Positions 11,977-41,931 of a stretch of DNA of 43,365 nt are shown piece after piece. The position numbers and the translations under genes are program-made. Where the stretch lies: assembly GCA_041831495.1 (NCBI GenBank), contig JBHAST010000058.1, positions 1 through 43,365 of the forward strand, read 5' to 3'. A model generated the notes under the pieces. It saw only the letters and a list, made by a program, of their open reading frames with translations. It made no database searches and was not told where the DNA came from. This DNA comes from a bacterium. Its GTDB lineage: Bacteria > Patescibacteriota > Gracilibacteria > Absconditabacterales > Absconditicoccaceae. Numbering within the stretch: the first letter of the stretch is position 1; each line of letters starts with the position of its first letter.

Positions 11977-12068
11977 TGTTTTTTCCCATTTTCCCCTTGA
12001 AAGCTGAGCTTAAATGAGTAGTATATTCTGTCTTGCTAGAATTTTTTGCAAAGATTTTTTTAGTTGAG

Positions 12069-15215: not shown

Positions 15216-15482
15216 ATGATCTTTGAGTATAGTGAAGAAAAAAGACAGAAGCTTATCTCAGAATGAAAGATGGATTTCCTCCTTATTGTAGAGATGATTA
15301 ATCAAGGGAATATCCTTGATGTGAAGCAAAATGAAGTAAAAGGAAGAGAGCATCAAAAAGTTTTTATTCTTCAATATAATGAGTATATACGAGTAGTTCC
15401 TTTCGTAGAGACAGCAGAAAAGATCTTTCTTAAAACAAACTATCCATCAAGAAAACAGACCAAACTTTATCTTTGAAAATAA
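15216..15482 (+). CDS. brnT: BrnT-like (DUF497) toxin of a type II TA pair (88 aa)
   Basis: MIFEYSEEKRQKLISEGKMDF... and C-terminal ..IFLKTNYPSRKQTKLY match the BrnT pattern (FEWDE.K......HG..F ... ISaRkAt..E..Y). There are two in-frame TGA. The gene lies 5 nt upstream of its partner. Confidence 0.6.
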
Positions 15483-15487
15483 TTAAG

Positions 15488-15778
15488 ATGACGAAAAAAG
15501 ATTACCACTTGACTCCTGAGGAGCTTACAATAGAAAAGGAGTTGGATCAGTATGTATCAGTTCCTAATCTAGAAGAAGAGAAAGCGAGATATGCTAAGAT
15601 TGCAAAAGCTACTCTTGCAAAAAAATCTCAAAAAAAAGTGATTACTATCAGACTTCCAGAAGAAGTTATTGGGCAATTTAAGTTGATGGCAGAAGAGGAA
15701 GGAATACCTTACCAAACTCTTATGTCTTCCGTTCTTTATAAAGTTGCACATAAAAAACTTTCTTTGGTTGTAGAGTAG
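15488..15778 (+). CDS. brnA: BrnA-like antitoxin (96 aa)
   Basis: VITIRLPEEVIGQFKLMAEEEGIPYQTLMSSVLYKVA matches the BrnA C-terminal RHH-like motif (..RLd.dvl..fk..a...G.gYQT.iN..L). ATG 15488 lies within ORF-track 15473..15778. Confidence 0.65.
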   Translation: MTKKDYHLTPEELTIEKELDQYVSVPNLEEEKARYAKIAKATLAKKSQKKVITIRLPEEVIGQFKLMAEEEGIPYQTLMSSVLYKVAHKKLSLVVE

Positions 15779-19219: not shown

Positions 19220-19663
19220 TTATTCCTCTCTGCCTTGGATTACTTTTTTAATATCTCCGAGGCGATAGCCTTTTCTCATCAGCTTTTGAATGATTTCAAA
19301 TCCCTCAACGCCCTTTTTCTTGTATTGTCTGATTTCTTTTTCTATACCTTGCAAAATTCCTTCCTGAATATCTTCAGCATATTTTTCCATAAGCTGAGCG
19401 AGCAAAGCTTTATCAATACCTTTGAGTTCCAGCTTTTGTTTAATCACAAAAAGTGGCTTTCCCTTTCTGATTACTTCGCTATTAAGATAACTTTCCGCAA
19501 AAAGCTGATCATTCACAAAGTTTTCAGCCTTTAATTTTTCTAAAGTTCTCATCACCATTTCAGAATCATAGCCTTGTTGATAAAGTTTAATCCTAAGTTC
19601 CTTTTCAGTTTTTGGGTATTTACTGATGAGAGTTATCGCATATTCATAACAAGATTTTGCCAT
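19220..19663 (-). CDS. recX: Recombination regulator RecX
   Basis: 147-aa ORF with three-fold helical repeats typical of RecX (..EKELRIKLYQQGYDSEMV..L.KLKAENFVNDQLFAESY...). Confidence 0.75.
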   Translation of the reverse strand: MAKSCYEYAITLISKYPKTEKELRIKLYQQGYDSEMVMRTLEKLKAENFVNDQLFAESYLNSEVIRKGKPLFVIKQKLELKGIDKALLAQLMEKYAEDIQEGILQGIEKEIRQYKKKGVEGFEIIQKLMRKGYRLGDIKKVIQGREE

Positions 19664-19666
19664 TGA

Positions 19667-20134
19667 TTAAGATTGAAAATATAAATGTTCATTTTCTAAA
19701 AATGTATTTCGTGCAATTTTAACCGCTTGTGGAGTGATTTTTGATAGTACTGCTTCTTTTGCTTCCCAAGTGATGCTGAATTCTCATATTTGTTGCTCTA
19801 AATCAAACAGCTCAGCAAAAAAGAAATGAGATATAGAATGCAAATTAAGATCCTGCTTTTGCTCATACCTTTCAAGGTGAATAATTACCTGCAGATTTTT
19901 AATCTTCTTAATATGAAGAAATCAGACCTCTTCTTTAATCTCTCTTTCAACTGCTTGTTCTAAGCTTTCTTCTTCAATTCATCATCAAGGGACGGTAATG
20001 CCATATTTTTCTTCAATGAGGGCAAATTTTTCTTGACTTGGATGCTTTAAAAAGCAGGCAACTCTTTCTCTAGTCGTTCGTTCCTTTCAATTTTGAGGGG
20101 GCTGAAGTTCCGATACAATCCTGATCTTTTGCAT
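19667..20134 (-). CDS. Nudix hydrolase (155 aa)
   Basis: Hand translation of the minus strand gives the Nudix box VPGGGIEEEESLEQAVEREIKEEVG. The GGG is three consecutive TGA (19979-19987). This gene is absent from the standard-code ORF track. Confidence 0.85.
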
Positions 20135-20976
20135 TACAACAATTCATCAAATAAAGCTCCGACCTCACCAAAATCTCCATCGCCGATGAGAACGAGATCA
20201 AAAGCTTCTTCGTAAGTCTTAAGAAGCTCAGGAGTTTCAGAAATCAAAATTCAAATTTTAAGCACAGTTTCATGAGAATTTCCCTGTGCCATTTGAGCAT
20301 CACCAAGCCCATCACCGATCACGATAACATTTTTTCTCTTCTCAAGCTGACTTTTCAGTTCAGGGAGTTTAGAAAAAACTCATTCATCTTTATTGAGTGC
20401 ATGAATAATTTCTCCTTCAATACCTTTCGCAACTCCCTCTTCATCTCGGATAAAATGGTTGATAACATAAGAAATATTAGGAAAATCGCATTGATTATGC
20501 TGCATAAAAAGCGGAATTGCATCTCCACAACCGCTTGCAGAAAAAATCACAATCGGGATTCAGCTTTCATTCAATTTTTTGAGGCAATCCTTCACACCAT
20601 TTCTGAGCTGAAGATGCCCATTAGTTGCGATATCTTTAAGATCTGAAAGTCTAAGTTTTGAATCAATCAAAAGCTGATCATGCTTTTCTCGCCATTCCTG
20701 CATTTGAGCTTTTTTGTATTCTAAGTCTAATGCTGGATTACATTCTATAGCATGATAATGATCAAAAAGTGCATGAGCTTTTTCTGCATAATCGTCGGTC
20801 AAATGATTACCATCTCTCAAAAGTGAGATAATACTCGGTGTTTTTTTCCCATTGAAAGTACCATAAGTAAGCGTTCTATCAAAATCAACAAGAATATAGG
20901 AAAAGTTCTTCCCAGCCTGTTGAATTATTCTCTTTTTCTGGGCAAAAAGTTCTGGATTTTTGATACGAACTTGCAT
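20134..20976 (-). CDS. HAD-superfamily pyrimidine 5'-nucleotidase (UMPH-1/NT5C3-like), 280 aa
   Basis: Motifs are DFDRTLT (motif I), FSASGCGD, GDGLGDAQMA and FI.DEEGVAKGIEGEIIHALNK (compare NT5C3 [23 protein letters not shown]). Track piece 20560..20976 extends through three TGA. The stop TAA overlaps the Nudix ATG (TAATG at 20132-20136). Confidence 0.75.
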
Positions 20977-20979
20977 TGA

Positions 20980-21594
20980 TTATTGAGCCAAAGTAAAGTG
21001 AACACTTTCATTTCAAGAAACAAATTCTGAACTCATCACTCAGTCAGCCTCTTTTTTTTCAATACTCAATAGAAGCGCTTCTCCTTTGAGAAATTCATCA
21101 AATTCCTCCAAAATTGCGGTCAGATTTTCGCTTTCAGTGCTATAGGTTAGCTTTACCTTTTGCTCCACGGCAAAATCAGCATCTTTTCTCATCTGATTAA
21201 GGAAACGAGAAATCTCCCTTGCTACCCCTTCTCTCTCAAGTTCTGGAGTTAAATTCAAATCAAGTTCCGCGATCATATTTCCCTCTACTGCAATATTGTC
21301 CGCATCTAGTCCCTCATACGCCACTTCGTAATCCTCAGCACTCAAAATCCAGCTTCACCCCTGCGGAGAAAAAACTTCAATCTGTCTGTTTTCAAGTTCT
21401 CTGATATTTCCTTGCTTTCCATTAGCGATAATTTGTCCTGTATCTTTCCCAAATTTCGCAGAAAGTTGGCTTCCAAGGGGTTTAAAAACTTTTACCAAAG
21501 GTTTTTCGGAATGGAAAGATCAGATTTCTTTTACATTTACTTCTTCTTTGATGATTTCGCCATATTTTTCCAAAAGTTGTTGTTCGTTGAGCAT
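20980..21594 (-). CDS. Free-standing homologue of the C-terminal domain of type-2 isoleucyl-tRNA synthetase (204 aa)
   Basis: ...EEVNVKEI...FKPLGSQLSAKFGKDTGQI...LDLNLTPELEREGVAREISRFLNQMRKDADF.. matches the IleRS C-terminal junction/anticodon-contact region. ATG 21592-21594 is preceded in frame by TAG TAG. The upstream 164 bp is non-coding and leads to the divergent tilS gene. Confidence 0.7.
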
Positions 21595-23735: not shown

Positions 23736-24416
23736 ATGAAAGTTCACGAAAAAAATCACATCCCTTTAGTCCAGATCAAAGAGCTAACCTGGGGCTATTT
23801 AGATAGTAAAAAAGTTCTCTTTAAAAAATTCAACTTTGAACTCGAGAAGGGGGATTTTACCGTTATCACAGGAAAGTCTGGGACGGGGAAATCTACGCTC
23901 GTAAAGTTCCTGATCGGGCAGATCAAACCTTACAAAAAAACACTCTACTACAAGATGGAAGATATGTCAGAGTTTTCAGATGCGGAAATCCAGAGATATA
24001 GGAGAAAGATTGGGATTATTTTTCAGGATTATCAGCTTATCAACAGCCTCTCTCCAAAAGAAAATGTGATCTATCCTCTAGTTTTGGAGGGCGTTCCGCT
24101 AACTGAAATCAAGAAAAAGTATGATGCCGTCAATACGTTGCTCGATATTTCTAGTATCGAAACCAGGGAAATCAAAAAGCTCAGCTGAGGAGAAAAGCAA
24201 AAGATTGCGATGGCGAGAGCGATTATCCACGCTCCAGATTTCATCATTGCCGATGAACCGACAGGAAACCTTGATCAAGAAAGCTCGCTTCAGATCGCGG
24301 ATATCCTTATTAAAGCCAATCAAATTGGAAACACGATCGTGCTTATTACTCATGATACTGCATTGCTTGAGTATCTCAAAAAGAATACCAAGGTAAAAAC
24401 CATCACCCTTGGCTAG
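23736..24416 (+). CDS. ABC-transporter ATP-binding protein, FtsE-like (226 aa)
   Basis: Walker A is GKSGTGKST. The signature is LS[TGA]GEKQ, i.e. LSGGEKQ (TGA at 24186-24188). Walker B is FIIADEPTGNLD and the H-loop is ITHD. Confidence 0.85.
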
Positions 24417-26261: not shown

Positions 26262-26666
26262 TTAGTTGCTTTCTTCAAGCGTTTTCCCAATTTGAGTTTT
26301 TGTAGCTTGTTTTGCTTGCTTGACTTCCATTTGCTCAAGAAATACGGCTTTCTGTTCATTCAGGTAGTCTTGGGTTTTTTGCAAAATATCCATTTTTTTT
26401 CAGTATAAATGACCAAAGGTCCGCCCCCCATTTGATAGATTAACATTCAATTCTCAAAGGACATTACCTGATTCTTCACATAAGAGAGCGCTTCTATTTG
26501 ATGGTTCTGTTGGGTCAAATGGTATTAAAGAAATATCATAGTCTTTATCCGCTATAGAAAACTTTACGGTTTTCCCATCAACAAAATCTCTCCATTGTTC
26601 GGGATTGAATGCGGGAAATCAAGTATTTACTTCCTTTTCTGGAGTTCTATTAACATGTGTTTTCAT
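26262..26666 (-). CDS. Hypothetical protein (134 aa), last gene of the minus-strand operon
   Basis: Hand translation from ATG 26664-26666 to TAA 26262-26264 is open with three TGA read as sense. It lies 24 nt downstream of the preceding gene. Confidence 0.5.
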
Positions 26667-26690: not shown

Positions 26691-27194
26691 TTATTTTGCC
26701 TCAATAAAGGTTCTCCTTTTGAGTGTGCTGGAACTTGTAGGCTCTCCCGCTGCTGCTTTTCTTCCTCTCCCTCTATAGGTTTTGAGTTTATCTTTCTTGG
26801 TAAGGGCATCATCAATTTCGTTTTCAAGGTTTTCGATCGTTTTTTTGAGTTCTTGAACTCTTTCCCATTCTACTTGATAGCCTTTCGTATCTCCACTCGC
26901 TTGCAAGGCAATCAGCTTTTTTTGTCTTTTTTCATAGTCATCAAAATACTCGTTGTAGATCGCTAGCATTTCCTGTATTTTCGCATCATTTTTTTCAATG
27001 AGCTGTTCAGTTTTCCCACTCTTAAAATCACCTTTTGCAGTCTTATTTCGTGATCCTGTTGTCGGTTGGCTATTACAACTGCTTGCTGAAAGGGTGATAA
27101 AAGCCGCTGTGGCTGTAGCGAGGCTCAGTTGTTTTGCTCTATTTTTTGCTTCTTTAAGCTGTGCTCCGATTTCTTTAAAGTTGAGAGTAGTCAT
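26691..27194 (-). CDS. Putative lipoprotein or membrane-anchored coiled-coil protein (167 aa)
   Basis: Intact ORF. The N-terminal hydrophobic stretch ends in a LSASSC lipobox-like motif, followed by a heptad-rich segment (IQEMLAIYNEYFDDYEKRQKKLIAL...IENLENEIDDAL). Confidence 0.65.
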   Translation of the reverse strand: MTTLNFKEIGAQLKEAKNRAKQLSLATATAAFITLSASSCNSQPTTGSRNKTAKGDFKSGKTEQLIEKNDAKIQEMLAIYNEYFDDYEKRQKKLIALQASGDTKGYQVEWERVQELKKTIENLENEIDDALTKKDKLKTYRGRGRKAAAGEPTSSSTLKRRTFIEAK

Positions 27195-27227: not shown

Positions 27228-29849
27228 TTACTGGGTAGGGTGTTCCTGTTTCCAAAGTGCATTGAGATATTTTACAAAGAATCTTCTATTTTGTTCAGCT
27301 TCTATAGTAGGAAACTTTCTATCCATAGTACTCAGGATTGGAATTCTATCGCTGAGGATCGTTATTTCTGTTCCATTATTGTGTTTGAAGATAATGTTTT
27401 GAAAGATACGATCATATCGTGTTGAAGATAATGAGAACGGGTAATTTTCATCGTTCTGTTTTTGTAAATCTGGAGTCTCTCATCGTGTGTTGTGATCATT
27501 CTTCAACATGCTCACTAAGAGCCCTATATGCAATAATTCTTCGGCAGATCCAATAGGGATTTCATTTCCCGTAGCATCAACAAAGCCCTCAAGGCGTTTC
27601 TGTTTCATATTGAGTTTGATCTCTTGACCGTAGGCTTTCAGGGTGATACTTTCGGTGTCATTAACTTCAAGTCCTAGCTGCTCAATGTTTGCTTTCCCAG
27701 CCATAGTTTTATAGGTCTTGTAGAGTGTGAGTTTTTCGCTATCAGGGAGCCCAAGCTTTTGAATATTTTGAAAAGTCTCATCATGAGGCAAGAGTAATCC
27801 TTCTTCTTGCATTTTCTTAAAATCACTCTTGCTGAGTTGCTTGTTCGTAAAGATTCTCTGTTCTAATTCCTGTCTTTTCTCCTCATTTACGGTGAGTTGA
27901 TATTGAGTACAGTAATTTTCAAGTTGTTTGAAAGCTTCAGAATCCTGATAAAGTCTTTCATTTAGGTTATTTTGTGCAGAACTTGGATTTGCAAGGTCTT
28001 CTGCTTTGAGTTGCATTTTCTCAATCTCTTGTTGAAAGCGTTTTTCATTGCCTTGGTTGTTGATGATGCTTTCTAGGGCAGCAAGCTGACTTTTGAGAAT
28101 GGATTCAGTTTTCCTATCTTGATTTGCCTTTGCTTTTTCTAGTTCTCAAGTATAGTAGTCTTTTAGTTTTCCTGTATCAATATGAGTAATATTTCCCATT
28201 GCTGGAGAGCTACACTGTGCTAAAGTGCTAAATGGTACACCCAAAAGCACAAATTGAAGCATACTTTGGTTGACAGCAATCTTTTCAATTCCTGTGGCTT
28301 GGTCAAATGCTTTACTATTCCAAGGCGCAACTCCTGTTCTTCGGAAAGTATTGATATTTTCTAATAATCACTTTCCTGTTGCTGCTTGAGAAGCATAGTT
28401 TGCAAGCATTGGAAGTCCAATCGCAGCAGCAATTTTTCCAAGTGAAAAGCCAAATTTTCATTCCTTGTTTGTAAAAAGCCATTTTCCTACAAGAATCGCT
28501 GCTCCAATCATTCCAACCGTTGTAAGCGTATTGACTGCATTTCTCGCTTGTCCATGAGACATTTTTGTATTTTTATCAAGCCACTTTTCTGCGATGTTTG
28601 CATAGCCTCCACAGGTTTGAAAATAGGTATTAACCGGAACAAAGTTTTTATTAAAGTCTTTTTGAAGCAATGCTTGATTATAGATTTCAATTGGTTTCCC
28701 TTGATAGGAGAGTGTGGTTTTTGCTCCAGATTTAATTTTATTTTTGTTTTTGTAGAGATCAATGATCAGCGGGTTTTGTTCAAGAAAAGCGATTGGAGTA
28801 TTGATATAAATGCCCTGTTCTAAGGCTTGAGCGATTTGTCAAAGTACACTTGCCTTTCGTAGTTTGTAATTATTGCTATTTTGCTCATTAAGGAGTTTTT
28901 CGTAAGATGTAAGCAGTTTATCAAGTTCTTTTCCAGATTTTTTTTCTGCTTTTAATCTTTTTTCTATTCTTTTTCTTGCTGCCTTAATACTAGCAGGATC
29001 CAAAAGATCTTCTCTAGTGAGGTAATCTTGATATTTCTTAGGAATCTGAAGAGAGAGTGCTTGAGGAGGGGCGACTAAGCTATCAATCCTATCTAATTCA
29101 CGCAACTGTTCAGCGGTAAGGAAAATGTTCCCTTTCTCGTCAGGCTTAATCGTTTTTGAAAGTTTTTCCAAACGCTTCGTAACTTCTTGTGCTTTTTGGT
29201 CAAGAGTAAGTTCTGCTTTTTGTTCGTGAGTTTCAGATTTCTCTTCTGATGAAGTCTGAGGCGTTGTGCTTTTCGTTTCTGGGACTTGTTCCTGAGTCAT
29301 GGTATTTGAGATTTGTTCGTTTGTTTCTGAGACCTGTTCTTGAGTGATAGTCTTTGAGCTTTCGTCCTTTGTTTTTTCCTGAAGGTTTCAACTACTAGGA
29401 GCTTGTGCTAATTGTTTTTTTATGCTAAGAATGATGCGATCTTGCTCTGGAGTCGTAGTAAATTTCTCCTCAAGAAGAAGTTGTTCTGCAGTTTTTCAAG
29501 CTCCATTTTCTTTGATTCGTTGCTGAAAGTTGGGATTATCTGGATTTTTCCCTTCAAAATTATACCTTTTAGAGAGTTCAATACCTGTTTTTTGAAAGAG
29601 CGCTTCCTGTTCTGGGGTAAAGCTAAAGTTTTGTTCAGTTAGTAGTTTTTCTGCTTTGTCATAATGTTCCTTTCAAAAAAGATTTTCAATAAAAGATTTC
29701 CTGAGCGCTTTCATATCAATGCGATTTACCTGTTCAGAAAACTTATCAAGAGGTTTTTCTGCAATTTTTTCTCAGAGTTGCTTTACTTCCATGCTTGATA
29801 GTGAAGGAGCTTGCTGCTCGGTTTCTTTTTTGATTTCAACGATATTCAT
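27228..29849 (-). CDS. Large uncharacterised membrane protein 'D' (873 aa): coiled-coil/STQ-rich N-terminus, Gly/Ala-rich TM pair, helical C-terminus
   Basis: Track pieces 28839-29300, 28458-28670 and 27480-28016 share a frame. All gaps were translated codon by codon and contain only TGA. The upstream in-frame stop is at 29934-29936, the first ATG at 29847-29849, and TAA at 27228-27230. The TM candidates are TTVGMIGAAILVGKWLF and FGFSLGKIAAAIGLPMLANYA. Confidence 0.8.
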
Positions 29850-30048: not shown

Positions 30049-31548
30049 ATGGAGATGATGAAAAAAAACTCGCTTTCGTTCCTAGGATATGCCTTTTGAG
30101 GAGTGCTTTTCCTTGCTTGGATTCTCTTCCTTTTTTTTGATGCAAAGAAAGAAACCTTCTTATGAGCTGATAATGCTCAGCTTTCTCCAGCAAATGAAGC
30201 TTCCCAACTTTCAGGAGAAGATCCTCATCAGAATGCTGAACTTTTATCTGGGTTTTTACAGCAGGAAGAAGTGCTTACTTCCGAGAATCTTCAGAGCCTT
30301 GGAGAATTAAAGGAAAAAATTGAAGTCTTGGAGCAGCTTTTTGCCGAGCAAGCAAAGAGCGAACTTGCGAACCTCCTTTTAGAAGCTTATCAGCTTGATA
30401 AGCAGTTTGATACCGCAAAAAAGTTCTATCTAAGCCTGAATGAAGAGATGAAAGCTGACTTGGATCAGACTTTAGATTTTAAGCTGGGAATCCAGACTTT
30501 TTCTCAGACTTCAGATACTGAATATCGTAATCTCAAAGCCCTTTTGGAGCAGAAATATGAGCAGAAACTCTTTTCCTCACTTGAGAGAAAGTATTACGCG
30601 ATTGCTTTTGCCCTAGCTGATCAGCGTTATGATGCGGTAAAGGCTGGAATACAAGAGCTCTACGGCACAAAATATCAGGATTTTGCTCGTGGAATCCAGT
30701 CCGCCTTTGACCAATATGCGAACCTCAAAGATGTTCCTGCATATTACCAAGATGCCTTGCTCGCCTATCAGCTGATGAACGAGGGCTTCCTCGCTTTGTC
30801 CAAGAAAATGGCACTTTCGCTGGTAAATCAGTATCCTAACTATATTTTGCCGTATCAGATCCTCGCAAATGTTGATTTTTCTATGGGGAAGCGATCTTCG
30901 GCTGCTCGTTATTTTTCTCAGCTTTTGGAGCTGGATTATCAGGAGAAAAATCTCTATCTTTATCATTTAGGAGCTTGTTATTATCGTTTGGAGAAATATT
31001 CTGATGCCGTACTGTATTTGGCGCAGATTACCGATCCGAGTATTTTACTCGATTCTGATAGATATTTGATTTTGAGTTATCTCGCTCTTGGAGAAGAGGA
31101 AAGAGTTTTTTCAGGTTGGCAGAGATTACTAGGCTATCCATCAATCAAAAAATCAGATTTTTATTCTTTTTTTGAAGAGGCATTGCGAAAATCCTATCGC
31201 CTCTGAAAGTCCTCTCCTTACCTAAAAAAGAACGAAAAACTTGTCCAATCCTACCTTCTCGCTTGCAGTAAAAAGCTTTCATGAAGCGATGCTGAGGTTT
31301 GTCAGTATGGAGAACTCGGACTTGCTGCTCAGCAGGGAAAAATTTCAGATCTTGAAGTCCAAGTTTCCCGTTTAGCAAGAAAATATCCAAAATCTGAATT
31401 CTTTCTCCTTTTGGCTCAGCTTGCGGAAGAAAAATGAGATGAAAAAGAGGCAACTGCATCCTTGATGAGAGCCTTGAGTCTAACGAAATCTGCAGAAGAA
31501 AAAGCCTATCTTAAGGAGCAGATTCTCAAGTTAAATGAAGTAGAGTAG
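30049..31548 (+). CDS. Membrane-anchored TPR-like helical-repeat protein (499 aa)
   Basis: The frame of track piece 30271..31206 extends upstream through two TGA to ATG 30049 (MEMMKKNSLSFLGYAFGGVLFLAWILFLFF, a TM helix). It extends downstream through three TGA to TAG 31546-31548. TPR-like segments include AARYFSQLLELDYQEKNLYLYHLGACYYRLEKYSDAVLYL. Confidence 0.75.
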
Positions 31549-31669
31549 TCATTGTTTTTGTTCATTCAGGGATGGTATCCTTGATGATGGTTTTCTCTTA
31601 TTTTCAGCTATAATCAAAAAAAGAGAAGTCTGATGCTTCCTTTCTTATGTTGTGAATACTATTTCAAAC

Positions 31670-31747
31670 TGGGGCGACTGATGGGGTTCGAACCCACGAC
31701 CCTCTGGACCACAATCAGATGCTCTAACCAACTGAGCTACAGTCGCC
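31670..31747 (-). tRNA. tRNA-His (anticodon GTG) with encoded G-1 and 3' CCA
   Basis: The reverse complement is GGCGACTGTAGCTCAGTTGGTTAGAGCATCTGATTGTGGTCCAGAGGGTCGTGGGTTCGAACCCCATCAGTCGCCCCA. It folds as a cloverleaf: acceptor GCGACTG/CAGTCGC, an extra 5' G opposite C73, D arm GCTC/GAGC, anticodon loop TTGTGGT, T arm GTGGG-TTCGAAC-CCCAT. Confidence 0.9.
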
Positions 31748-31924
31748 ATTACCTCCAGCAAATACTATACAGAAAGTTTCAGGAATTTCAAGAGATTTCT
31801 CAATAAAAAAATCTGAATTTATAGAATGTCAAGTCATTTGAGAAGGAAAGGTATTTAGATTTTTCTTTTTTCTTTGATTTTGGTTATACTTAGCGTGAGG
31901 ATTTTATTTCCTATCAAAAATTCA

Positions 31925-34900
31925 ATGCCGACTTCATTAGAAACTCTAAAAACCAGAAAAGAAACGATTCGTGAGGAGCTTGATCAGCTTAAATCGTTAT
32001 CACAAAGCCAAGAAAAAGAGCAAAAACAAGAGAAAATTGCTAGTGAAATTTCAAAGCTTGATCAGGAACTTCAAGCCTACTTGGCTCAGGAAAGTGATAC
32101 AGCAAAAAAAGCAGAAGCACAGGAGATTGCAAAAGAGCTAGAAAGTTTTTCTTCTGCGTTGGAAGATTTGAAGCAGGAAGTGATAAAAAGTCAAAAACCT
32201 GAATCTGAAGCTGTGAACACTGAGGCTTCTTCTTCAGCCAAAGCGACTCCAACAACGGAAGAGAAGAAAAATTTTCTGCAAAAAGGAATGGATTGGATCA
32301 AGGGGGACGAAAATGAGACGCATCATACTGCGAAAGCAATTGGTCGTGGTGCTTTGGTCGCTTCTGGAGTGGGTATTGGAGTGTATGGGCTTGGAAAGCT
32401 TTTTGGTTGGTGGGGAAAGAAAGAAGCATCTGCTTCAAACTCAGATACTTCAAAAAAAGAAGAGAAAAAGGGTTTCCGAAATTCTGGTTTTGGAAAATTT
32501 TTGAAATGGGCTGGGATTGGTGCTGGTGTAGGAACTATTGGTTATCATCTTGGAAAAACGTTTGGTTGGTGGGGGGAAGACTGACCGTGAGAATGAGTAG
32601 ATGCTACCGATAATGCAAAAGATCAAGCAGAGAATACTGCAGAACTCAAAGAAAAAAATCCTGAAAAATTTGCCAAATATCAGGGAATGTGAGCAAATAT
32701 TGATAATCAATATCATCAAATTATGAAAAAAGAGCTAGATGCTGGTTGGTCAGGAATGAGTATTGCTGATGGCTATGTAAAATATGCAGACAAAACCAAA
32801 CTTAGCAAAGAAGATTTCCAAGCAACCGTGCCAATGTGTATTGATAATGAATTTAGCTCAGTTGAAAACTTGCTTTCTGAAGGAGGATATTATGGATATT
32901 TGAGAGAAAAAAGTCTAGGTGAGATCAAATCTTTTCTCATTGGTAAAGGGAAAGAGTGGATTGGTAAAATTATGGGACCTTATCTTGTAAATCTTACTTC
33001 TTTTATTCCTTTTATAGGAGATGATTGGTCAGAATCGTTGACAAAGTGGTTAGAGTCTGGAGAACCTGCGGAAAGAGAAGCAGAATTAAAACTTTTTTTC
33101 AGACAATATGCTAAAGTGGTAAATTACACACAAAATATTCGTGCTAGATTGATTGAAAAAATTGCAGAAGAGAAGTTTAAGAATGTAGGAGAAGATTTTT
33201 CTACTTTAGAAGATGCATTAGACGATGAAGAGCGACTCACAACACATATCTATTCAGATGCTCGTTATAAAAACTTTATGGGAGGGAAGCTTCATCAAGC
33301 AATTGATGTCATGAAAAGTCAATCGCTCTTTGATGCTCAGCTCTCTGTGAGAATGAAAAAACAGATGGATGCTGCAGATGCTCAGAGAGACACAATTTTG
33401 AAAGCTAAAGATGGCAAAGATGCTTTGCAAAGACTACAAGAAGCAAATGGAAATCTGACTCCTGAGCTCAATCGTGAGGGGATTCAGGTTTGTAAAGATA
33501 TTACTGAAGACCTCAAAGAAAACTTTGATAAAGATTGGAGTTATCTTTATTTTGGTTCAGCTCATGCAGCGATAAACTCGGATCAAAAGAATATTCAAGA
33601 GTTTCTTAAAGAATCAGGTCTGTGAGATTTAAAATCAGGAATTCTTGATTCCCTCAAACATTTTGAACAAAAATTTGCATCAGGACAGATGAATTCTGCA
33701 GATTTAGAACTTTACAAAAATCAGATCAATAGCTACTTTGCTATGAAAAAAGAGATTCTCATTGGTGCAGAATCAATTCAACAGATGAAAGCAGACAATA
33801 GCAGTATCATAGAGAGAATCCTCAATGTTGGAAGTGCAGTAGTAGGAGATGTCCTCCATCATACAGGTCAATCTGTAAAATCCTTCAAAGATGGAAATTT
33901 TATGACATGATGGCTTCAGGCAACATTGCCTTTAGTGATTTGAGGGGAAATATTTATTGGATTTGGGAAATATAAAGGAAGTAAAAAAATAGAGAACCGA
34001 GCAAGATTTATGCGTAATTCCAATCTCTTTTCTCTTGCACGAAACATCAAAGGCAAGCTAATCCGTCGTATGCCAAATAAAAATCTGAATTTTATGCCAA
34101 ATTGGCTTTTATCTTCAAGATATAATATTCCTCATGGAGATCAACTCCTTTTTCAAGATATTATTGAGGGAAAAATCAATGGAGAAAAGGCTCAAAGACT
34201 GATAAAGAAGGGGAATAGTCAGTGGAAGCATGGAGAGTGAATCAATTCACTCTCTGAATTTATACAAAAAGTAGCAGGAAAAACTGATACCGAATTGCCA
34301 GCAAAGCAACTGCAAATTCTCTTTAATAATGATGCTCAAATCTCATTTACTAAAAATAAGTCTTTAAGAGATTTGTTCTTTAGACAAGGAAAAATTGGAG
34401 CTTGGGAACAAACAAAGAGTATTTGGAACGGATATCGTCAAAAAATATATACCCCATCTGGATTTCATCATGTAGAAATTTTAGAAAAATTTATGGCTGG
34501 AGAAGCAGGTCAAACTTCACCATTTGCTAAACTTACAAAGAATCAGCAACTTTTGTTCAAAGAATTAGTTGATCAAGGAAAATTTACCAAGATTGAGGAA
34601 TTAGGTGCGATACTCAAAAATATTGATAGTATCAATTTAGAAAATGTTGAAATCTGAAAAATATCTCGTTTAGCCTCAGAATTGGGAGCTTCTTTAGATG
34701 ATTTTTTGGATCCAGCAAAACTTCAAAATAAAATCACTGCTTCTTTGCAAAAACCTCTTGATCAGACAGTTATTGCTGATGAAGCTCTAGATGCAGCTTC
34801 AGAAGCACTCCGCAAAAAGCCAATTTTCAATGATCTCTGAGAGCAAAAAAGACTTTTAGATGCAGAACTGGAAAGACTCCAACAACTTCCAAACAAATCC

Positions 34901-35356
34901 TCTGTAGATCAGGTTCGTATCAATAAACTGCAAACTCAGCTTACTGAACTAGAAAACTTTGAAAAACAGCTCTTGAACTGAGGAGAGGAGATGGTGGATC
35001 AGACCTCAGAACTTTTGACCCTTTTGAAAAAGGGAGGAAATCTGAGTGCAGCTATTGAGCAGCTTGAACTTTTGAAGAAACTTGAAGGAGAAAAGTTTGT
35101 GAGTAGTGTTATTGATCCAAAAACTGGGAAATGAATTGAAAGATCGCTTGATGAGGTGATCAAAAATCTTGATGATGTAGCGATTCGTTCTCTGAAAGGG
35201 AAAATCTCAGGAGTTAGCGATGATGCTCTAGAAAATCTAGCAAAAACTTTTGCTGATATCAAGGTTGCACAAAATGCAAAAAAACTCTTTAGCAATGCTG
35301 ATGAGTTTTTGACAGGAGTGAAAACGATGATCAAAATCTTTGCTAAAGTAACTTAA
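31925..35356 (+). CDS. Giant uncharacterised protein 'A' (1143 aa): N-terminal coiled coil, duplicated glycine-zipper TM hairpin, long helical body
   Basis: Track pieces 31874-32584, 32723-33625, 33689-33910, 34010-34240, 34295-34657 and 35156-35356 share a frame. The gaps contain only TGA (hand-checked). ATG 31925 to TAA 35354-35356. Confidence 0.8.
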
Positions 35357-35385
35357 GACTTTCTTTATTCTTGTTTCAGAGAACG

Positions 35386-38300
35386 ATGACAGAAGCAACA
35401 GAACAGCTCAAATCAGAAATCTCAGATCAATACCTCAAAGATTTTAAAGATGAACTCTGATGGATGAAATCATTGGCACTTTTGCCGATAGAAGAAAAAG
35501 TCAAAAAAATCCTGACTGGTGCCTTTCAATTGCCTGAAAAGTTTGATGAAGTCAAAGAGTTTGGTTGGTGGAAAGATATTATCAATTTTGTCTCTCCTAG
35601 TGTTGCAAATCAGATTTTTGACTTTATGAAAACAAAGAGACTAGAAATAGAAAAGAGAAAAACAGAAGATGAATTGCGTAAACTCAAAGCAGAGATTTTG
35701 TGAGAATCTGTTGAGGAAACTGCTCCAACTGGAACCCCTGCTTCAACTCCTGATACACAAACTCAAAATTCTTCAGATACTGTGCAAACTCCTGCATCAT
35801 CAGATATCGCTCCTGGCGAGAATGTATCTTCAAATATCAATTCTGCTCTAGCATGAGCGGGAACTGCAGCAATCTGAGTGCTGGCAACCAAATGAATTGC
35901 TTCTAAACTCAATGCTAGAGAACTGCAAAAAATGGCAGAAAATTTTGATACAGAAAAGGCTAAAAATCTCCTCAATAATGCCATTGATGCTTTGGAAAAG
36001 CAAAAGCAGACGCTCGCTTCTCGTTTGAGCACAAAGCAGATCGCAAACATTGACAAGCATATTGCCAAGCTCAAAGAGGGAATGACTACTGCCGATGATG
36101 ATGTGATCAAGCTCCTCAAGGCATGGCAACAGCTTGATACGAAACTTCCCAAAAAACTTTTAGTAGAAGCGGGACTTTCTGTTGCTCAGCTTGCTAAGAT
36201 TGAAAAACTTGCACCTCAGCTCATCGGAAAAGAGTCTCAAGCTCTCAAGGCAATTCTTGATCAAAATGGACTAAAAATCAGTGATGATATAATCTCTGCA
36301 TTGGCAAAAGCAGGGACGGAAGCAGAAATCAAAACCATGACCAGAATCCTCAAGCATGGAAGTAAAATCAATAGATTTACTCAGGCTTTTGCTGGTGCGA
36401 TGCTGATTGATGTTGCTTGTTTAGGGCTAGATGTATGGATGTATTTAGAAACGCAAAAAGAAGCAGACCTCATCGCAAAGGTAAACGAACTCAGAGCTCA
36501 AAATAAAAGAAATCAGGCAACGACTCAGCTTTGGATTGGTATTGGTTCGGTAGCAGCAGAGGTGGCGATTATTCTCACTGCAATGAGTGGAGGAACCGCG
36601 GTTTGAGGTCCCTTTGGAACGGTTGCTGGTTTGGTTGTGGGAGGGCTTTCTGCAGCTGCGAGTATGGGAGTGGATAGCCTTTATTTTGATGTGCAGGATT
36701 TCTATAAGCAGAACCGCGAAGATTTCCTCAGACAAAAACAATCTCAGCTCAATCAGGCCATTCTCCAAGGACTCCACAATCAAAAAGAAGGAGACAAAAG
36801 CCTGAATGAAAAACTTTGATCACCAGAACCAAGTCAGAAAGCACAATCTCTACAAGATGCGATCTGGTCAAGAATTTTCCTTGATGAACTGCAAAATGGA
36901 AACTTTGCGAGCTATGGTCCTTTTTGGGAGTATGTGCAGAGCGGGGAAAAGAAAGCTGATTTTGTAGATAAACTTACTGCTGATCAGTCGGCTGAGTTTA
37001 GGCAAAAACGAGAGGAGATTTCGCTAGTCATTGCCAAGAGAATGGAGTATGTCAATCAGGAACTCAAAAAAACAACCGTAATGCAGGCTTTGAAGCAAGG
37101 AAGAGGTATGCAAGCGGTTTCTACACTGATTACCCAATCAAAAGCATATGCAGAGCTTACATCGCAAGACAAGCGAAATCAAAAACTGTCTTTTGAACAG
37201 AATCTTGCGAAGTATAAGTCAAATTTTTTTGCTGATTTTCCAAAGCAAAAGCTAGAAAAACTAGAAAAAATAAAAAAATCTGATCCTTACCTCTTTCAAG
37301 AGCTGATGGCGACAGCTTCTTTGTCTTCTCTCATCAGGGAAACACAGACAGATCTCAACTATGATCAGAATGTAAAGCTCGTTGCGAAGTACCAAGAATG
37401 GCTGGATTTGACTGCTCCTCAGGAGGAAAAAATCAAACTAAAAATTCCTGATTCTGCAAAAAATATGAGATTTATAGAAAAGTTTTTGGAAGCTGATTTT
37501 GAAGTTGATAAGGTCGCTTTTCTCGGAAACTCGGCAGATCAAGTGAAAAACCTTATCCATCTCAGGCAAGAAAGAAATGCAGTGATGGAAATTTCCGATG
37601 GTCCGATACAAAATGCCTTGTATAGACTGGCAAAAGAGCTTTATGGTTATACTGGGGCTAATGAAAAGGAGGATTTGATGGCATTTTACGATGAAAGTAA
37701 TGGTGCTGTCCACGGAATCTACTACAAAGATGCACGAAAGGTCAATGAAGACTGGGCTATTGATAGCGGAATGAAGATGGGGAAGTGAACCGCAAAGCTC
37801 AATTCTGAAGCTGAAATCAATCAATATGTAGCATCTTTTATGAGCAGAAACTTTGAAACAATCGATCAAAACGGACATTCTATCAAAAAATCCGCGATTG
37901 ATACTCCAACAGAAACAATTGATAGCTATCTGCAAGAGGAGTTTGAAACACAGTTTGCTCGCTTGCTCAAAGAGGAATTGCTTACTCGCACTCCAAACCA
38001 CCAAAACAAGGTAAAAAATCAGATTTCTTCTTTTGTTCAACAGCAAGCCAAAAATGGTGAATATGTAGAATTGCCGTATTATCTCCTCTTGGCAGCGAGG
38101 CAAGCGGGATTAGGAGATTTGCAAAAGCATTTTTATACTCGGAAAAATGGGAAAATGGAGGTGGTTATGCTTCCTTCTGAGCTGAATAATGCCTATGGTT
38201 TAGATGCCAAAAAAACGTATTTGACCAAGACTCGTGAACACTTTTCAGAGCAAGAGCAGATCTATATTCAGAGAGTAGAAAATGCTCATCAACTACTGGA

Positions 38301-39465
38301 AAATCTGAGAAATCTCGGAGGAACAGCTTTTTTGAGAGAAGGCTTTGAAGATGAGCTAGATCTCCCAGCAGAAATTGAAGTACTGATCAGTGATAAATAC
38401 AAAGAATGGAATGCTTTTAAGTCCGATATCTTGCTTTATAGTGCAGAAAGTGCGACAAGTTCAGATATTGTGATGAAATATCAAGCATTTGCTGAGTATT
38501 TTGAGCATCTTTATCGTGGGATTTTGCTCAGTTTGGGCGATTTCAAGATGAGTAATGATGTGGATTCTTTTGCATTGTATCGTGGAGCATTGAGCTTATG
38601 AAGCCAAAATCTCTTTGATGAAAACGGAGGTTTGAAGTCAGATTTATCTTCTTCTTTTCTCCAAAATGAGCAGGTAAAAACTTTTTATGCTCAGCAGCTC
38701 AATAAGCACTCCATCTGAGGAAAAACACTTGCACAGCTGCGATCTTCTGAGGAAAGCAAAGAGCAGTCGCTAGCAAAAAGAGCAAGTGAAGCGATCCTTA
38801 CGGCAATCTTGGAGCAGAGTTTTCTGAAAAAAGCTAAAGATGGCAAGATTACGAGTATTGCAATCGGTGGACATTGGCTTGATACCGATAAAAACTCCTT
38901 TGCTAATGCACAAACTGAAGCTCTCATTCAGCAAAAACTTGCTCAACTCCAAAATCTACCAGATCTTGATAAAAATAGCATCGCAACTCTTCAAACTCAG
39001 CAACAAACGATCAAACCTTTGACTCAACACGAGGAAAAGCTGGTGCCTCAGGTGTCAGCGATTCAAAAGCAGATTGAAGCCACGATGAGCGAAGTTGTCT
39101 GGCAAGGAAAAAGGGGAAATCTGACCTACGATCCCGAGCAATCCACGATTTCTAGCCGAAATAATACCGTTGGAGTAGAAATTAAAGGAGATAAGCTGTA
39201 TCTCAAAGGTCTTGATCTAGCTTTTTCTCCTCAGGAACTCGCATGGTTTGCAAACTTTCGCAATCGAGTAAAACATAAATATCAAGGGAAAACTCTTGTC
39301 TTTGCAAGAGATTTGATGAATACTTCGTTTTCATTTAGGAAAACTTTTGTAGTTGATGGGACGATGTTGATTGCTAGATGAGACCTAGAAAAGCATTTGC
39401 CTTGCTGTAAAGATGATGCCGTGATGCAGAAAATGCTCGTTTGGCTTAATTCAGCTTTGAAATAA
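35386..39465 (+). CDS. Giant uncharacterised protein 'B' (1359 aa): N-terminal module, STP-rich linker, Gly/Ala-rich TM cluster, long helical C-terminus
   Basis: Track pieces 35464-35703, 35932-36606, 36631-36819, 36934-37788, 37840-38601 and 38809-39381 share a frame, and the gaps contain only TGA. ATG 35386 lies 29 nt after the stop of A. The stop is TAA 39463-39465. The TM cluster is FAGAMLIDVACLGLDVWMYL ... LWIGIGSVAAEVAIILTAMSGGTAVGGPFGTVAGLVVGGLSAAASMG. Confidence 0.8.
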
Positions 39466-39490
39466 TTTTACTTTAATGAGATAGAACACA

Positions 39491-40498
39491 ATGAATATAC
39501 TTAATGCACTGAATGAGATCGTTGAAGCAGTAAACGAAACCTCGGAAGACACAGCCACTGCAGAAAATCTGCTCAACCTTAAAAAAGAGCTTGCAGAGCA
39601 GATTGTTGAAAAAATGGAAGCTGAGAGCCCTGATCTTTTGCTTTCAATGGGGAGGGATTTTGTGGTTGATTATTTGGTAGATGAGGGAATGATGGATAAA
39701 ATCCATGATGCTTTTGTTGAAAAGGGCTTAGATGCTCTGACTTCTGTTTCTCCAAAACTTAAAGAGCTTAGAGAAAAATTAGGAAAAGTCTGAACGGAGG
39801 CGGAGCTTCAGCATTTAAAAGCTGAAATTTTACACGAAAATGTTGCTCCAGCTTCAGAAGCTGCAGCTTGAGCTGAAGTTACTTCTACTTCTCCAACCTC
39901 TAAACCTTCTTCTGAGGCTCTTGCATCTTCCCCTTCGGTTTCTAGCTCATCTTTTCAAGGTTCTGCTGTTGAATCTTCTTTTCGTGAGGCTCCAAACGAA
40001 CTTCTTGCTCCTGGGGTTTTGGGGTTTAATGCTGCTAAGATTCAGTCTTCTCCTTTTGAAAGAAGTCGCTCAGGAACAACGCTTTGTGCCAAGACCGCTA
40101 AAGAAAATGCAGAAAAATTCGGTATTGAACTGCCTTCGGGGAATGCGCGAGATGCTTCACAAGAGTTACCAATTGCAGAAAATTATATAACAAGTCTTCC
40201 TATAGACAAAAAAACTGAAAGACCACAAAGATCGCGAGAATCTTTGACGATTGAAGATTTTAATGCGATGGAAGGTGTAAATGTTGCAGATATTTACCCT
40301 GATTCTAAATCAAAATATGGGCATAGAGCACTTGCTTTTAGAGATGTTTCAGGGGAGCGAATGGTGCTTGATCCTTATATCAAAGTGAATGGAGTGAGAG
40401 ATAGAAAACCAAAAAAGCTAGAGGACTACCTGCAGGCGAGAAAGATCTTTAAAAGTCATTTCTATGTTGTGGATCATAATAAAAAACTTGTTGCGTAA
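39491..40498 (+). CDS. Uncharacterised protein 'C' (335 aa): N-terminal module shared with B, Ser-rich linker, C-terminal Cys...His peptidase-like domain
   Basis: Track pieces 39491-39793 and 40019-40498 are in frame across two TGA. ATG 39491 lies 25 nt after the stop of B. The C-terminus contains SGTTLCAKTAKENAEKFGIELPSGNARDA ... SKYGHRALAFRD. Confidence 0.8.
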
Positions 40499-40501: not shown

Positions 40502-41455
40502 TTAGAGTTCCCAAACTTTATAGCTTACTCTAGCTTTGGGTGCTTGCTTGCCCTCGGCAATATACCTTCTAAACCAAGTTCTCTGCTTTTTGGCGAGGTG
40601 GTGAGTGTTTCTTTTGAGGAGTTCTTCCATTTTTTCTTTCCCATATTCGCCTTTAAGGTAGCCAACGACTTCTTTATAGCCGATGCCTTGCATGGATTGA
40701 AGCTCAGGTGCGTAACCTGCCTCTAAAAGTCATTTAACTTCCTCAATTAGACCGTTTTTGAACATTTCTTTGATTCTGGTATTGATGAGCTGATTGGTGG
40801 ATTCCTTATCTCTCCAAAGTCCGAGCATCAGGAGCGGATGACGAGGGGGCTGTTGAATGTAGCCAGCTGTCTTGGTGATTCAGGTTTTTTTGTAAATTTC
40901 CAAAGCTCTGATGAGATATCTGGTAGAGTTAGGGTGAAGCTTCTGGGCTTCTTCGGGATCTACTTTCATCAGTTCACGGTAGAGAAATCCTGATTCTTTC
41001 GCCTCTTTTTCTTCAAGTTCAGCTCTTAAAGTCGGATCAGGAGGGCATTCTGGCAGAGAGAAATTTTTGTAAATGCTATCAATATAGAGCCCTGTTCCTC
41101 CTACGATAAAAGGCACTTTTCCTCTCGCTAAAATCTCGTCCATCTGCTGATCTGCGGCTTCTTTTCGTTGACCTGCGGTATAGCTTTCATCAGGATTTAC
41201 AATATTAATTTGATGATGCGGAATTTTGGCTCTAATGTCCGCTGGGATTTTGTCCGTTCCGATGTCCATCATTCTGAAAATCTGCCTGCTATCGCTAGAA
41301 ATAACCTCCAAATCAAAAAAAGCTGAAAGCTCCACAGAAAGTCTACTTTTCCCTGTTGCAGTCGCTCCCCAAATGATGATGGTTCCATCAGGATTCTGAT
41401 TTTTGAATGTTGTGATCGTGCTTTTCGCATCATCTAAAATCGCAGAGAAATCCAT
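40502..41455 (-). CDS. miaA: tRNA dimethylallyltransferase MiaA (317 aa)
   Basis: The P-loop is GATATGKS, followed by DSRQIFRMMDIGTDK, FIVGGTGLY and AKKQRTWFRR. Track pieces 40880-41455 and 40502-40693 are in frame and joined by TGA. The gene is convergent with gene C, with a 3-nt gap. Confidence 0.9.
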
Positions 41456-41601
41456 TTGCTTTCATTTTAAAAAGGTTAAAAATCTGACTTAGAGTCTACG
41501 GAAAGGCAGAAAAGATGCAAGTCAGAAAGGATTTCCTTTCTCTTGATAATTTCAAGAATATTCTTACACTTGCATTACTTTACTTTTTGAGGAGTAGTAT
41601 T

Positions 41602-41931
41602 ATGGTAGTAATTGTAAAAGTGCAGGATAGTTCTGGAACTGAGATTGGATCTTTTCAGGCAGAAGATACTCTTTCTCTGGCTGAAATGGCAGCAATGCAC
41701 GGTATTGAGATTTTGCAGTCGTGTAGCACTGGATTTTGTGGGGTTTGTCTTTGTGAGGTCTTAGAAGGTGCTGATGGGATTCAAAAAGATAAAACCTGAG
41801 ATGCTCTCTATGATTTGGCTACTGATGAGGATTGAAATCCAAAACAGGTTTTGGCTTGTGTTTGAGGGATTAAGTCAGAATTTTTTGCTGATGATAAAGA
41901 GCATACGATTGTTCTCAAGAAAGCCTATTAG
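41602..41931 (+). CDS. Plant-type [2Fe-2S] ferredoxin-like protein (109 aa)
   Basis: ATG 41602 is preceded by GAGGAG. The cysteine pattern is CSTGFCGVC (C-x4-C-x2-C) plus a downstream LAC. There are three in-frame TGA, and the stop is TAG 41929-41931. Confidence 0.75.

Follow-up and report, generated by a model that had tools for sequence, protein, structure and literature searches.

The window analyzed here is a stretch of 43,365 nt (positions 1 to 43,365, forward strand, of contig JBHAST010000058.1 in GenBank assembly GCA_041831495.1) from a bacterium of the Absconditabacterales (Gracilibacteria, Patescibacteriota), and its main subject is a run of three co-directional genes next to a tRNA-His gene, here called A, B and C, which are separated by only 29 nt (A-B) and 25 nt (B-C). 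A and B encode polytopic giant membrane proteins, and C encodes a soluble protein in which an N-terminal helical domain (hereafter Ndom) is joined by a linker to a candidate papain-like cysteine peptidase domain. Judged from gene order and profile comparisons, the third gene of A-B loci is a peptidoglycan hydrolase in most relatives, with catalytic domains that are swapped between loci, and B begins with a domain homologous to the Ndom of these hydrolases; the two features together tie A and B to cell-wall cleavage. The positions of the genes, their domains and the flanking features are collected in Table 1.

When read with code table 11, positions 31925-40498 shatter into many short open reading frames (ORFs). 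Once TGA is taken as a sense codon, ORFs of 100 aa or more add up to 93 kb in the window instead of 38 kb, and no similar gain was obtained by reading TAA or TAG as sense. With TGA as sense, ORF calling reproduced exactly the coordinates, protein lengths and gaps of the tight three-gene unit that a first-pass annotation, made from the sequence alone, had proposed, and the start codons of all three genes match the N-termini of their full-length homologs. Retranslation with TGA as Gly and CGA as Trp, which the same annotation had advised, was upheld both by this gain in ORF length and by codon-by-codon alignment of the window genes with their orthologs from three related loci. The TGA codons of the window pair with TGA or GGN, and its CGA codons pair with TGG (12 times), CGA (14 times) and four scattered non-Arg codons; the Arg codons AGA, AGG and CGT were never found opposite a window CGA in these alignments, and AGA and CGT codons of the window pair mainly with Arg codons. 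Codons 220, 249 and 290 of C are CGA, and at all three columns the more distant homologs mostly have Trp. The alignments confirm that UGA is read as Gly and CGA/CGG as Trp, which is the published code of Absconditabacteria (PMC8629427). Because CGA and CGG act as Trp, translations of the contig with table 25 put Arg in the place of Trp, and many database homologs show W where the window has G because they were translated with table 4. A promoter and terminator scan of the operon gave counts at chance level, with no terminator-like site in either the A-B or the B-C gap.

Table 1. Genes, domains and flanking features of the A-B-C locus (residue ranges are given as aa; ORF calls with TGA as sense).
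Feature	Position in window	Strand	Description
g29	26262-26666		featureless
g30	26691-27194	-	possible lipoprotein signal (…AAFITLSASSC), then a charged helical region; adjoins D
Gene D	27228..29849	-	873 aa; helical N-terminus, low-complexity linker, Gly-rich hydrophobic segments
tRNA-His	31670-31746	-	
Gene A	31925..35356	+	1143 aa, ATG 31925 to stop 35356
A N-terminal module, aa 1-182	31925..32470	+	charged helical segment, S/T/P-rich linker, first Gly-zipper hydrophobic segment
A hydrophobic hairpin, aa 138-214	32336..32566	+	two Gly/Ala-rich segments, each ending FGWWG; from hydropathy and flanking charges
A central domain, aa about 240-655	32642..33889	+	from invariant columns of the family alignment
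A third hydrophobic segment, aa 660-681	33902..33967	+	followed by a strongly basic stretch
Gene B	35386..39465	+	1359 aa, ATG 35386 to stop 39465
B N-terminal domain, aa 1-113	35386..35724	+	homologous, by profile comparison, to the hydrolase Ndom; ends ...KRLEIEKRKTEDELRKLKAEIL
B linker, aa 114-150		+	S/T/P-rich, directly after the N-terminal domain
B membrane region	35845..36678	+	hydrophobic segments aa 154-172, 334-352, 382-402 and 411-431; from hydropathy
B soluble body, aa 435-1359	36688..39462	+	mostly alpha-helical with alpha/beta parts in the predicted model
B C-terminal module, aa about 1200-1359	38983..39462	+	present twice in X686 (see text)
Gene C	39491..40498	+	335 aa, ATG 39491 to stop 40498; soluble, without signal peptide; Ndom, linker and papain-like Cys peptidase domain (candidate)
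C Ndom, aa 1-118	39491..39844	+	all-helical; helices over residues 3-113 in the predicted model
C linker, aa 119-170	39845..40000	+	A/S/T/P-rich low complexity; predicted local distance difference test (pLDDT) <50 over 116-170, predicted disordered
C catalytic domain, aa 175-333	40013..40489	+	predicted globular at 175-330, pLDDT about 90
Candidate triad of C	Cys199 40085-40087, His278 40322-40324, Asp294 40370-40372	+	invariant in 22/22 sequences
miaA (tRNA isopentenyltransferase)	40502..41455	-	Pfam IPPT, E 1.5e-76; convergent with C, 3 nt off the C stop

The link between B and the third gene is carried by the N-terminal domain that they have in common. In hhalign comparisons, the Ndom of C matched the first 125 residues of the B family with a probability of 88% (E = 2.8e-6 over 90 columns); matches between the hidden Markov models of B and Ndom were reciprocal, and in diverged hydrolases the B-family model spans the whole Ndom. 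The best-kept element is the last helix before the linker, which reads ...KR.EIE.RKTE.EL..LK.EIL in B and ...LKEFREKL...T..EL..LK.QI in the enzymes.

The gene after B nearly always encodes a protein of about 340-380 aa that starts with a helical N-terminal domain, continues as a low-complexity linker and ends in a domain that cleaves peptidoglycan, and it is this last part that differs between loci (numbered L001 to L025). Ndom is followed by NlpC/P60 in L001 and L010-L016; in L004 and L007 a protein with Ndom and YkuD_2 comes next to B and is itself followed by a C ortholog (Ndom with the C domain), and the C domain of the window occupies the same place in L006 and L021. The most distant loci carry Peptidase_M23 (L022, E = 1e-22), Peptidase_M15_4 (L025, E = 1.5e-17), an NlpC/CHAP-like domain (L024) and an unclassified Cys...His domain (L009). 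In these four the Ndom profile misses the N-terminal part of the hydrolases, and their layout (a helical N-terminus with a conserved L..LK..I helix, followed by a linker) was judged by eye. The exchange of domains is also evident from the proteins P0062 and P0063, which share only their first ~120 residues with C and in which NlpC/P60 replaces the C domain. Some loci add stand-alone YkuD_2 and NlpC/P60 genes. The neighborhood of L001-type loci gathers wall hydrolases beyond the operon itself: a 340-aa protein with a non-Ndom helical N-terminus and an NlpC/P60-like domain is encoded between miaA and a Fer2 gene in L001 (20210-21232, minus strand) and L010 (11972-12994, minus strand).

A search of 1.84 billion representative proteins with the Ndom profile gave 83 matches, which were always N-terminal. 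The 47 full-length members that we examined are 276-411 aa long, apart from one outlier of 519 aa, and the Pfam families found in more than one of them are peptidoglycan enzymes only, i.e., YkuD_2 (9), Peptidase_M15_4 (6), M23 (5), NlpC/P60 (5) and VanY (2); SLT, CHAP and Peptidase_C39_2 were matched once each, and 16 more families with one member each were judged to be noise. A signal-peptide-like or transmembrane hydrophobic segment was found in none of the 47. Ndom sequences are mostly inflated in Trp (median W 4.5%) and depleted in Gly, and because this is the signature of mistranslated UGA, the family is essentially confined to lineages that read UGA as Gly. A double-glycine leader and the YxxxD/E motif of the type VII secretion system (T7SS) were considered for Ndom and dropped by eye, since they either did not fit or were not kept in B.

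For C itself, 63 homologs were found, and it has no hydrophobic segment; the length of its linker differs between homologs. In the model of a protein 98% identical to C (P0001), the putative catalytic residues are placed as in papain-like enzymes: Cys199 opens a helix (199-208), His278 lies just before a strand (280-285) and Asp294 just after another (290-293). The same placement of the nucleophilic Cys and of its His and Asp partners is known from NlpC/P60, CHAP and C39 enzymes, and NlpC/P60 replaces the C domain behind the same Ndom in orthologous positions. The best Foldseek match was StbD-CT (8ssk, a C39 peptidase toxin) with E = 3.7e-5, described in the 8ssk paper as a helical entry domain that a flexible linker joins to a C39 cysteine peptidase. 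Further matches, at E values of about 0.01-0.1, were the JOS clippases, the papain-like toxin 9l5u, a CHAP-type Gsp amidase and USPs, and 3a2z was also among the fold matches. Unlike NlpC/P60, CHAP and C39 enzymes, however, the C domain has no sequence match in the Protein Data Bank (PDB) and no Pfam model in 24 members of the C family (PF00877, PF05257 and PF13529 were absent even at E = 1), and its fold matches are weak except for 8ssk. The cysteine peptidase suggested by the first-pass annotation thus stands as a candidate papain-like domain with an invariant Cys199/His278/Asp294 triad in the predicted model. Its substrate is presumably peptidoglycan, by analogy, because NlpC/P60, YkuD_2, M23 and M15 domains fill the same position in relatives, mostly behind Ndom.

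A and B have no such counterparts. A has 22 full-length homologs (29-67% identity) and no match in Pfam, NCBIfam, PHROGs or PDB sequences; B has more than 130 homologs, which are mostly full-length (40-99% identity), and no match in the same four libraries or in PADLOC. Pfam found nothing consistent in A, in B or in 18 relatives of each, and the profiles of both families, when compared with PDB sequences, recovered only designed or generic coiled coils, all above E 0.004. For B the absence of a recognized family, already reported from the sequence, extends to its predicted fold. P0064 shares 99% identity with B, and the AlphaFold model of its residues 175-1359, for which 34 aligned sequences were used, reached a mean pLDDT of 75.7 and a predicted template modeling score (pTM) of 0.70, with the soluble body mostly at pLDDT 80-94 and the membrane region modeled as long helices of low pLDDT; residues 175-330 form a helical stretch between the first and the second hydrophobic segment. 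Foldseek retrieved no fold match for this model in PDB (best E 1.5) or in BFVD (best E 0.025, probability 0.08); so far as the model can be trusted, the fold of the B body is novel. The alpha-pore-forming toxins AhlC and XaxB appeared at E values of 5-10, which are not significant, and were not used.

The Gly/Ala-rich hydrophobic clusters noted at first pass were found where they had been placed (A aa 138-214, B aa 334-431), and hydropathy added one further segment in each protein (A aa 660-681, B aa 154-172). The most conserved part of A is the start of its central domain, to about aa 420, with the motifs ATVPMCIDNEF, LSEGGYYGYLR and LFFRQYAKV. The second hydrophobic segment of A is followed by acidic residues and the third by 11 K/R against 1 D/E; by the positive-inside rule the central domain probably lies outside the membrane, and the charges would fit an external central domain and a cytoplasmic C-terminal domain, the side of the N-terminal modules being ambiguous. 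Both giants share modules with a family of 645-711 aa (X686), which is encoded upstream of A in L001, L017 and L023. The N-terminal ~200 residues of A, i.e., the charged helices, the linker and the first Gly-zipper segment, recur in X686, and the ~160 C-terminal residues of B matched X686 in hhalign with a probability of 97% (E = 5.6e-11) and a second copy with 87.5%. The possibility that A and B are paralogs was rejected, since alignment of the two families gave probabilities of only 44% and 30%, over short helical stretches. Sequence comparison thus points to three protein families that appear to be new (A, B and the C catalytic domain) and to two likewise new domains (Ndom and the C-terminal module of B).

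A scan of GTDB with one genome per species found B in 19 assemblies at 24-56% identity. The named carriers are assigned to candidate division SR1 or Absconditabacterales, with human and dolphin mouth among the sources, and one is labeled Gracilibacteria. Wherever the contig of a locus extends upstream of B, the direct neighbor on that side is an A-family gene, and the hydrolase gene is directly followed by miaA in the window as well as in L006, L012-L016, L018, L019, L024 and L025 (one gene further on in L021), an adjacency that holds even in the most distant relatives of B. The locus is an old chromosomal one, in which miaA marks the flank and is not a working part. One A-B copy was found per genome. 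Two paralogous loci per genome had been suspected from L001 and L004, an idea that was rejected because 19 hits from 19 assemblies indicate orthologous loci. The conservation and synteny across related genomes that the first-pass annotation had asked after are therefore evident in 19 species, with A followed by B and usually with miaA beside them. Its alternative, that these are decaying junk ORFs, does not agree with full-length homologs at 24-99% identity in conserved order. Full-length conservation and the kept order together imply that A and B are real, vertically inherited genes.

The surroundings of the operon also agree with the earlier view that it is not a prophage, a conjugative element or a known secretion system. 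No capsid, terminase, tail, VirB4, VirD4 or secretion-ATPase gene was found in the conserved flanks of related loci or among the scanned genes of the window (about 20 window genes were recognized by eye only); the genes that flank the cluster are housekeeping genes. PHROGs gave no match for the operon proteins, tblastn of B against 50,697 phage genomes gave none either, and the viral contigs of IMG/VR contained no relatives of B or Ndom. PADLOC returned nothing for the operon, and an anti-phage defense system was rejected on this ground. A prophage fragment (Phage_Mu_F, Peptidase_S78_2) is present in L004 (about 19250-20981), and likewise in L005, about 9 kb downstream of the cluster; it is considered unrelated to the cluster, because genes for Wzy_C, UvrB, LemA and a TPM-phosphatase intervene. 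In public records the A, B and C proteins are named only as hypothetical, and the literature searchable for this work mentions giant membrane proteins and scattered hydrolases but not a module of A, B and a hydrolase.

A comparison between strains adds a further aspect. Locus L006 (GCA_041815705.1) belongs to a series of metagenome-assembled genomes that has the exact C protein on at least 13 contigs. Its DNA matches positions 31161-32470 of the window at 96% identity, a stretch that takes in the end of a gene for a tetratricopeptide repeat (TPR) protein, tRNA-His and about 182 codons from the start of A. The next 4.6 kb (L006 1311-5902) are unrelated to the 7.0 kb that the window has in this place (32471-39462), and similarity resumes at C, miaA and Fer2 with 82% identity. 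In L006 the cassette encodes an unrelated 999-aa protein and a protein in which another body follows the N-terminal module of A, and both carry Gly-zipper-like hydrophobic segments. The two variants have C in full and the A N-terminal module in common, and it is the remainder of A, together with B as a whole, that behaves as a swappable cassette. The unequal identity upstream (96%) and downstream (82%) indicates that the locus is a recombination mosaic, and through the swap A-B-C stands out as a hotspot at which the envelope of an oral symbiont varies.

Absconditabacteria and their relatives are tiny and live on other bacteria, which the cultured ones kill, and we know of no account of how Absconditabacteria open the envelope of their hosts. 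Against this background the reading that we prefer, though we hold it only tentatively and at somewhat less than even confidence, is that A-B-C is a chromosomal, vertically inherited module of Absconditabacterales (SR1) that couples two giant membrane proteins to peptidoglycan cleavage, with docking through Ndom, export or positioning by A and B, and a leaning to the wall of the host. C would be a soluble enzyme that lacks a Sec signal and cleaves the peptides of peptidoglycan with its papain-like Cys-His-Asp domain. Ndom would serve C and the other Ndom hydrolases as the handle with which they dock, at the membrane, to the N-terminal modules of both giants. A and B would form a resident platform that either passes the enzyme across the membrane or holds it there, confining cutting to one site, and the flexible linker of 40-50 residues would give the catalytic domain its reach to the wall. 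We infer this docking, the export or positioning by A and B, their topology and the host as target; the account of a docking platform is proposed because the A-B genes and the hydrolase are linked in an operon, B and the hydrolases have Ndom in common, export signals are lacking, catalytic domains are exchanged, and no immunity genes or ATPase accompany the genes. We lean to the host cell wall at the zone of contact as the target because the lineage is predatory or episymbiotic, the chemistry changes between close species, some loci encode cocktails of enzymes, and immunity genes are absent. The envelope-spanning, host-contact or effector-delivery role of the unit that was envisaged at first pass is hypothetical as well. 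A bolder form, which we consider unlikely, is that A and B are a new apparatus for translocation or for breaching the envelope in predatory or episymbiotic SR1, and that Ndom is a new export signal by which folded, Sec-less hydrolases pass through A and B, or along them, to reach the wall of the host cell to which the bacterium is attached; if so, the operon would be the core of a long-sought feeding or attack device. Moving folded hydrolases by A and B with neither a Sec signal nor a nearby ATPase would amount to a new export principle. Whatever the mechanism, A-B-C appears to lie outside the known kinds of system, and its function is read from gene order and shared domains only. Two orphan giants are thereby tied, through a shared domain and gene order, to a defined family of wall-cutting enzymes, and Ndom provides a sequence marker for finding such hydrolases in any genome. 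Giant membrane proteins have been noted in Absconditabacteria before and proposed to act in host recognition (PMC8080830), and scattered hydrolases are listed in published genome papers.

Several observations weigh against a coupling of A and B to wall cleavage of this kind. The topology is ambiguous: the flanking charges of A fit an N-out arrangement, but a charged N-terminal tail of 135-150 aa seldom crosses the membrane unless a signal directs it. Neither the operon nor its conserved flanks encode an ATPase or another source of energy. The C domain belongs to no sequence family, and its best fold match is a protein-cleaving C39 toxin, not a wall hydrolase. In L008, L017 and L023 no hydrolase gene stands behind B, and L006 has unrelated proteins in place of B and most of A yet keeps C, which means that C does not strictly need B. 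Finally, the Ndom of B and that of the neighboring hydrolase are as similar within loci (23.0% identity) as between loci (23.0%), so there is no sign that the two co-evolve; co-evolution or gene conversion between them was rejected on these figures.

A serious rival, if on the whole an unlikely one, is that A and B are a lineage-specific replacement for FtsEX-type control of autolysins, tethering and activating the hydrolase with its helical domain and opening the cell's own wall in growth and division. The single copy per genome, the deep synteny beside miaA with vertical inheritance, the conservation of B over its full length and the stand-alone YkuD_2 genes in the same clusters (a family named for L,D-transpeptidases) would all suit such a task. 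The layout is also that of the FtsEX partners CwlO, RipC, PcsB and EnvC, in which a helical N-domain that contacts the membrane partner is followed by a linker and a C-terminal NlpC/P60, CHAP or M23 domain, and in both cases a membrane complex is paired with a peptidoglycan hydrolase. These partners, however, are exported by Sec, unlike the Ndom hydrolases; A and B, at 1143 and 1359 aa, are unlike FtsEX, and neither ABC_tran nor FtsX was matched in them or in 36 members of their families; and B carries the same N-terminal domain as the hydrolase, which FtsEX does not. Moreover, the catalytic chemistry differs between close species although the chemistry of their own wall should be stable, and the replacement of the A body and B in a strain with a 96% identical flank argues against an essential, finely tuned part of the divisome. 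If the module does serve the cell's own wall, it would be a non-homologous replacement of the near-universal FtsEX logic. The same replacement lends some weight to another reading, which we regard as quite unlikely, namely that A, B and C are all effector-like cargo, each with a conserved N-terminal handle, a flexible linker and a body that varies, and that a machine whose genes lie elsewhere exports them, the Gly-zippers of A and B inserting into the host membrane as translocators or pore-formers and C cutting the host wall. In L006, A is replaced exactly past its N-terminal module together with all of B, which resembles the C-terminal displacement in polymorphic toxins; N-terminal modules occur on different bodies (that of A in X686 and the L006 fusion, that of B in the hydrolases), and none of the proteins has a signal peptide. 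Polymorphic effectors such as those with T7SS LXG domains or CdiA-CT toxins (e.g., StbD-CT, the best fold match of C) likewise join a helical N-domain (the entry domain of StbD-CT) by a flexible linker to an interchangeable enzyme. But B is conserved end to end across the order and not only variable at its C-terminus, the consistent cargo of Ndom is peptidoglycan enzymes only, and a long N-terminal domain followed by three or four hydrophobic segments is most simply read as belonging to a resident membrane protein with a signal-anchor. LXG, Rhs, PAAR or CDI domains were not found, Pfam matched neither LXG nor WXG100 on Ndom or on the N-termini of A and B, and the flanks of all loci, those on the 43-kb contig included, lack EssC, CdiB, immunity, orphan toxin-module, secretion-ATPase, WXG-like, chaperone, small helical partner or other export genes.

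Variation of the cassette between strains could equally be expected of giant surface or adhesion proteins, such as the "fibrous coat" proposed for Vampirococcus, in which case the adjacency of a hydrolase would be functionally meaningless; the proposal of host recognition for giant membrane proteins in Absconditabacteria (PMC8080830) points the same way. We find this improbable. A and B have neither adhesin-type domains nor a signal peptide, and both are present in a true surface protein encoded in the window (g02, described below); the link between B and the hydrolase is kept over the 24-56% identity range, and since B shares a domain with the hydrolases, the adjacency is not incidental. Least probable by far, and already largely refuted, is a remnant of a prophage (a tape-measure protein with a lysin) or of a conjugative element (VirB6-like protein with a VirB1-like hydrolase). 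Phage tail and lysis modules, like Gram-positive conjugation modules, typically combine long helical proteins that have hydrophobic segments with neighboring lysins of the NlpC/P60, M23, M15, CHAP or SLT type, and the set of catalytic domains behind Ndom is the set seen in endolysins. As in holin-endolysin pairs and type 10 secretion, signal-less hydrolases stand beside membrane proteins that are obvious candidates for their exit. Holins, however, are small proteins, unlike the giant multi-domain A and B with their large conserved soluble domains, the hydrolases carry Ndom in place of a wall-binding domain, and phage context is lacking. A phage tape-measure or lysis module was rejected after PHROGs, tblastn of phage genomes, IMG/VR and BFVD (best probability 0.08) were all negative. 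The position beside miaA is stable across the order, no phage or conjugation gene of the kinds listed above lies directly beside the cluster in any locus (the lone prophage, that of L004, is 9 kb away behind housekeeping genes), and in contrast to type IV secretion and Gram-positive conjugation systems, no VirB4, VirD4 or VirB6-like match was found in the scanned window genes or the called genes of related loci.

Upstream of the operon, the first-pass annotation had joined A-B-C with gene D, its partners (g29 and g30) and the TPR gene into one locus of about 14 kb. This larger unit is weak. None of D, g29, g30 and the TPR protein has a homolog beside A-B in any other locus examined, so the super-locus is unsupported by conservation. 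In a single-sequence hhalign comparison the C-terminus of D showed a weak likeness to the copies that X686 has of the C-terminal module of B (E = 9e-4, probability 23%); D had no match to the B family and no relatives in the scan of JGI metagenomes. D is an uncertain member of the A-B-C system.

Among the other genes of the window, g02 (1575-5945, plus strand, 1456 aa) encodes a wall-anchored surface adhesin whose design contrasts with that of A and B. The protein has a classical signal peptide, three DUF285 (BspA-like) repeats, Ig-like domains of the cadherin and He_PIG kinds and, at its C-terminus, an SLH domain. Right after it, a gene at 6120-8021 (plus strand) encodes an extremely acidic 633-aa protein of low complexity, rich in E/Q/P/S/T, with one strong transmembrane helix near residue 416. 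The stretch at about 8000-12000 has a low GC content (0.30-0.33 versus about 0.39 elsewhere) and short ORFs only, and an ORF in it (10696-11025) has an N-terminal CxxC...CxxC zinc-ribbon like that of insertion sequence proteins; the stretch may be a decayed mobile element. Two adjacent genes of 88 and 96 aa at 15216-15778 (plus strand) resemble, by eye, a BrnT/BrnA-like toxin-antitoxin pair, the second ending ribbon-helix-helix-like in ...IPYQTLMSSVLYKVAHKK. A stand-alone ABC ATPase of FtsE-like size (23736-24416, plus strand; ABC_tran, E = 4e-31), without an adjacent permease, is the only ABC ATPase of the window and lies 7.5 kb from the operon; it is not linked to it, because it is not syntenic with A-B in other genomes. 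At the other side of the operon, a 2Fe-2S ferredoxin ORF of 174 aa (41407-41931, plus strand) overlaps the 5' end of miaA. Its relatives are 109 aa long, and judging from them its true start is probably about 65 codons downstream, near 41602.

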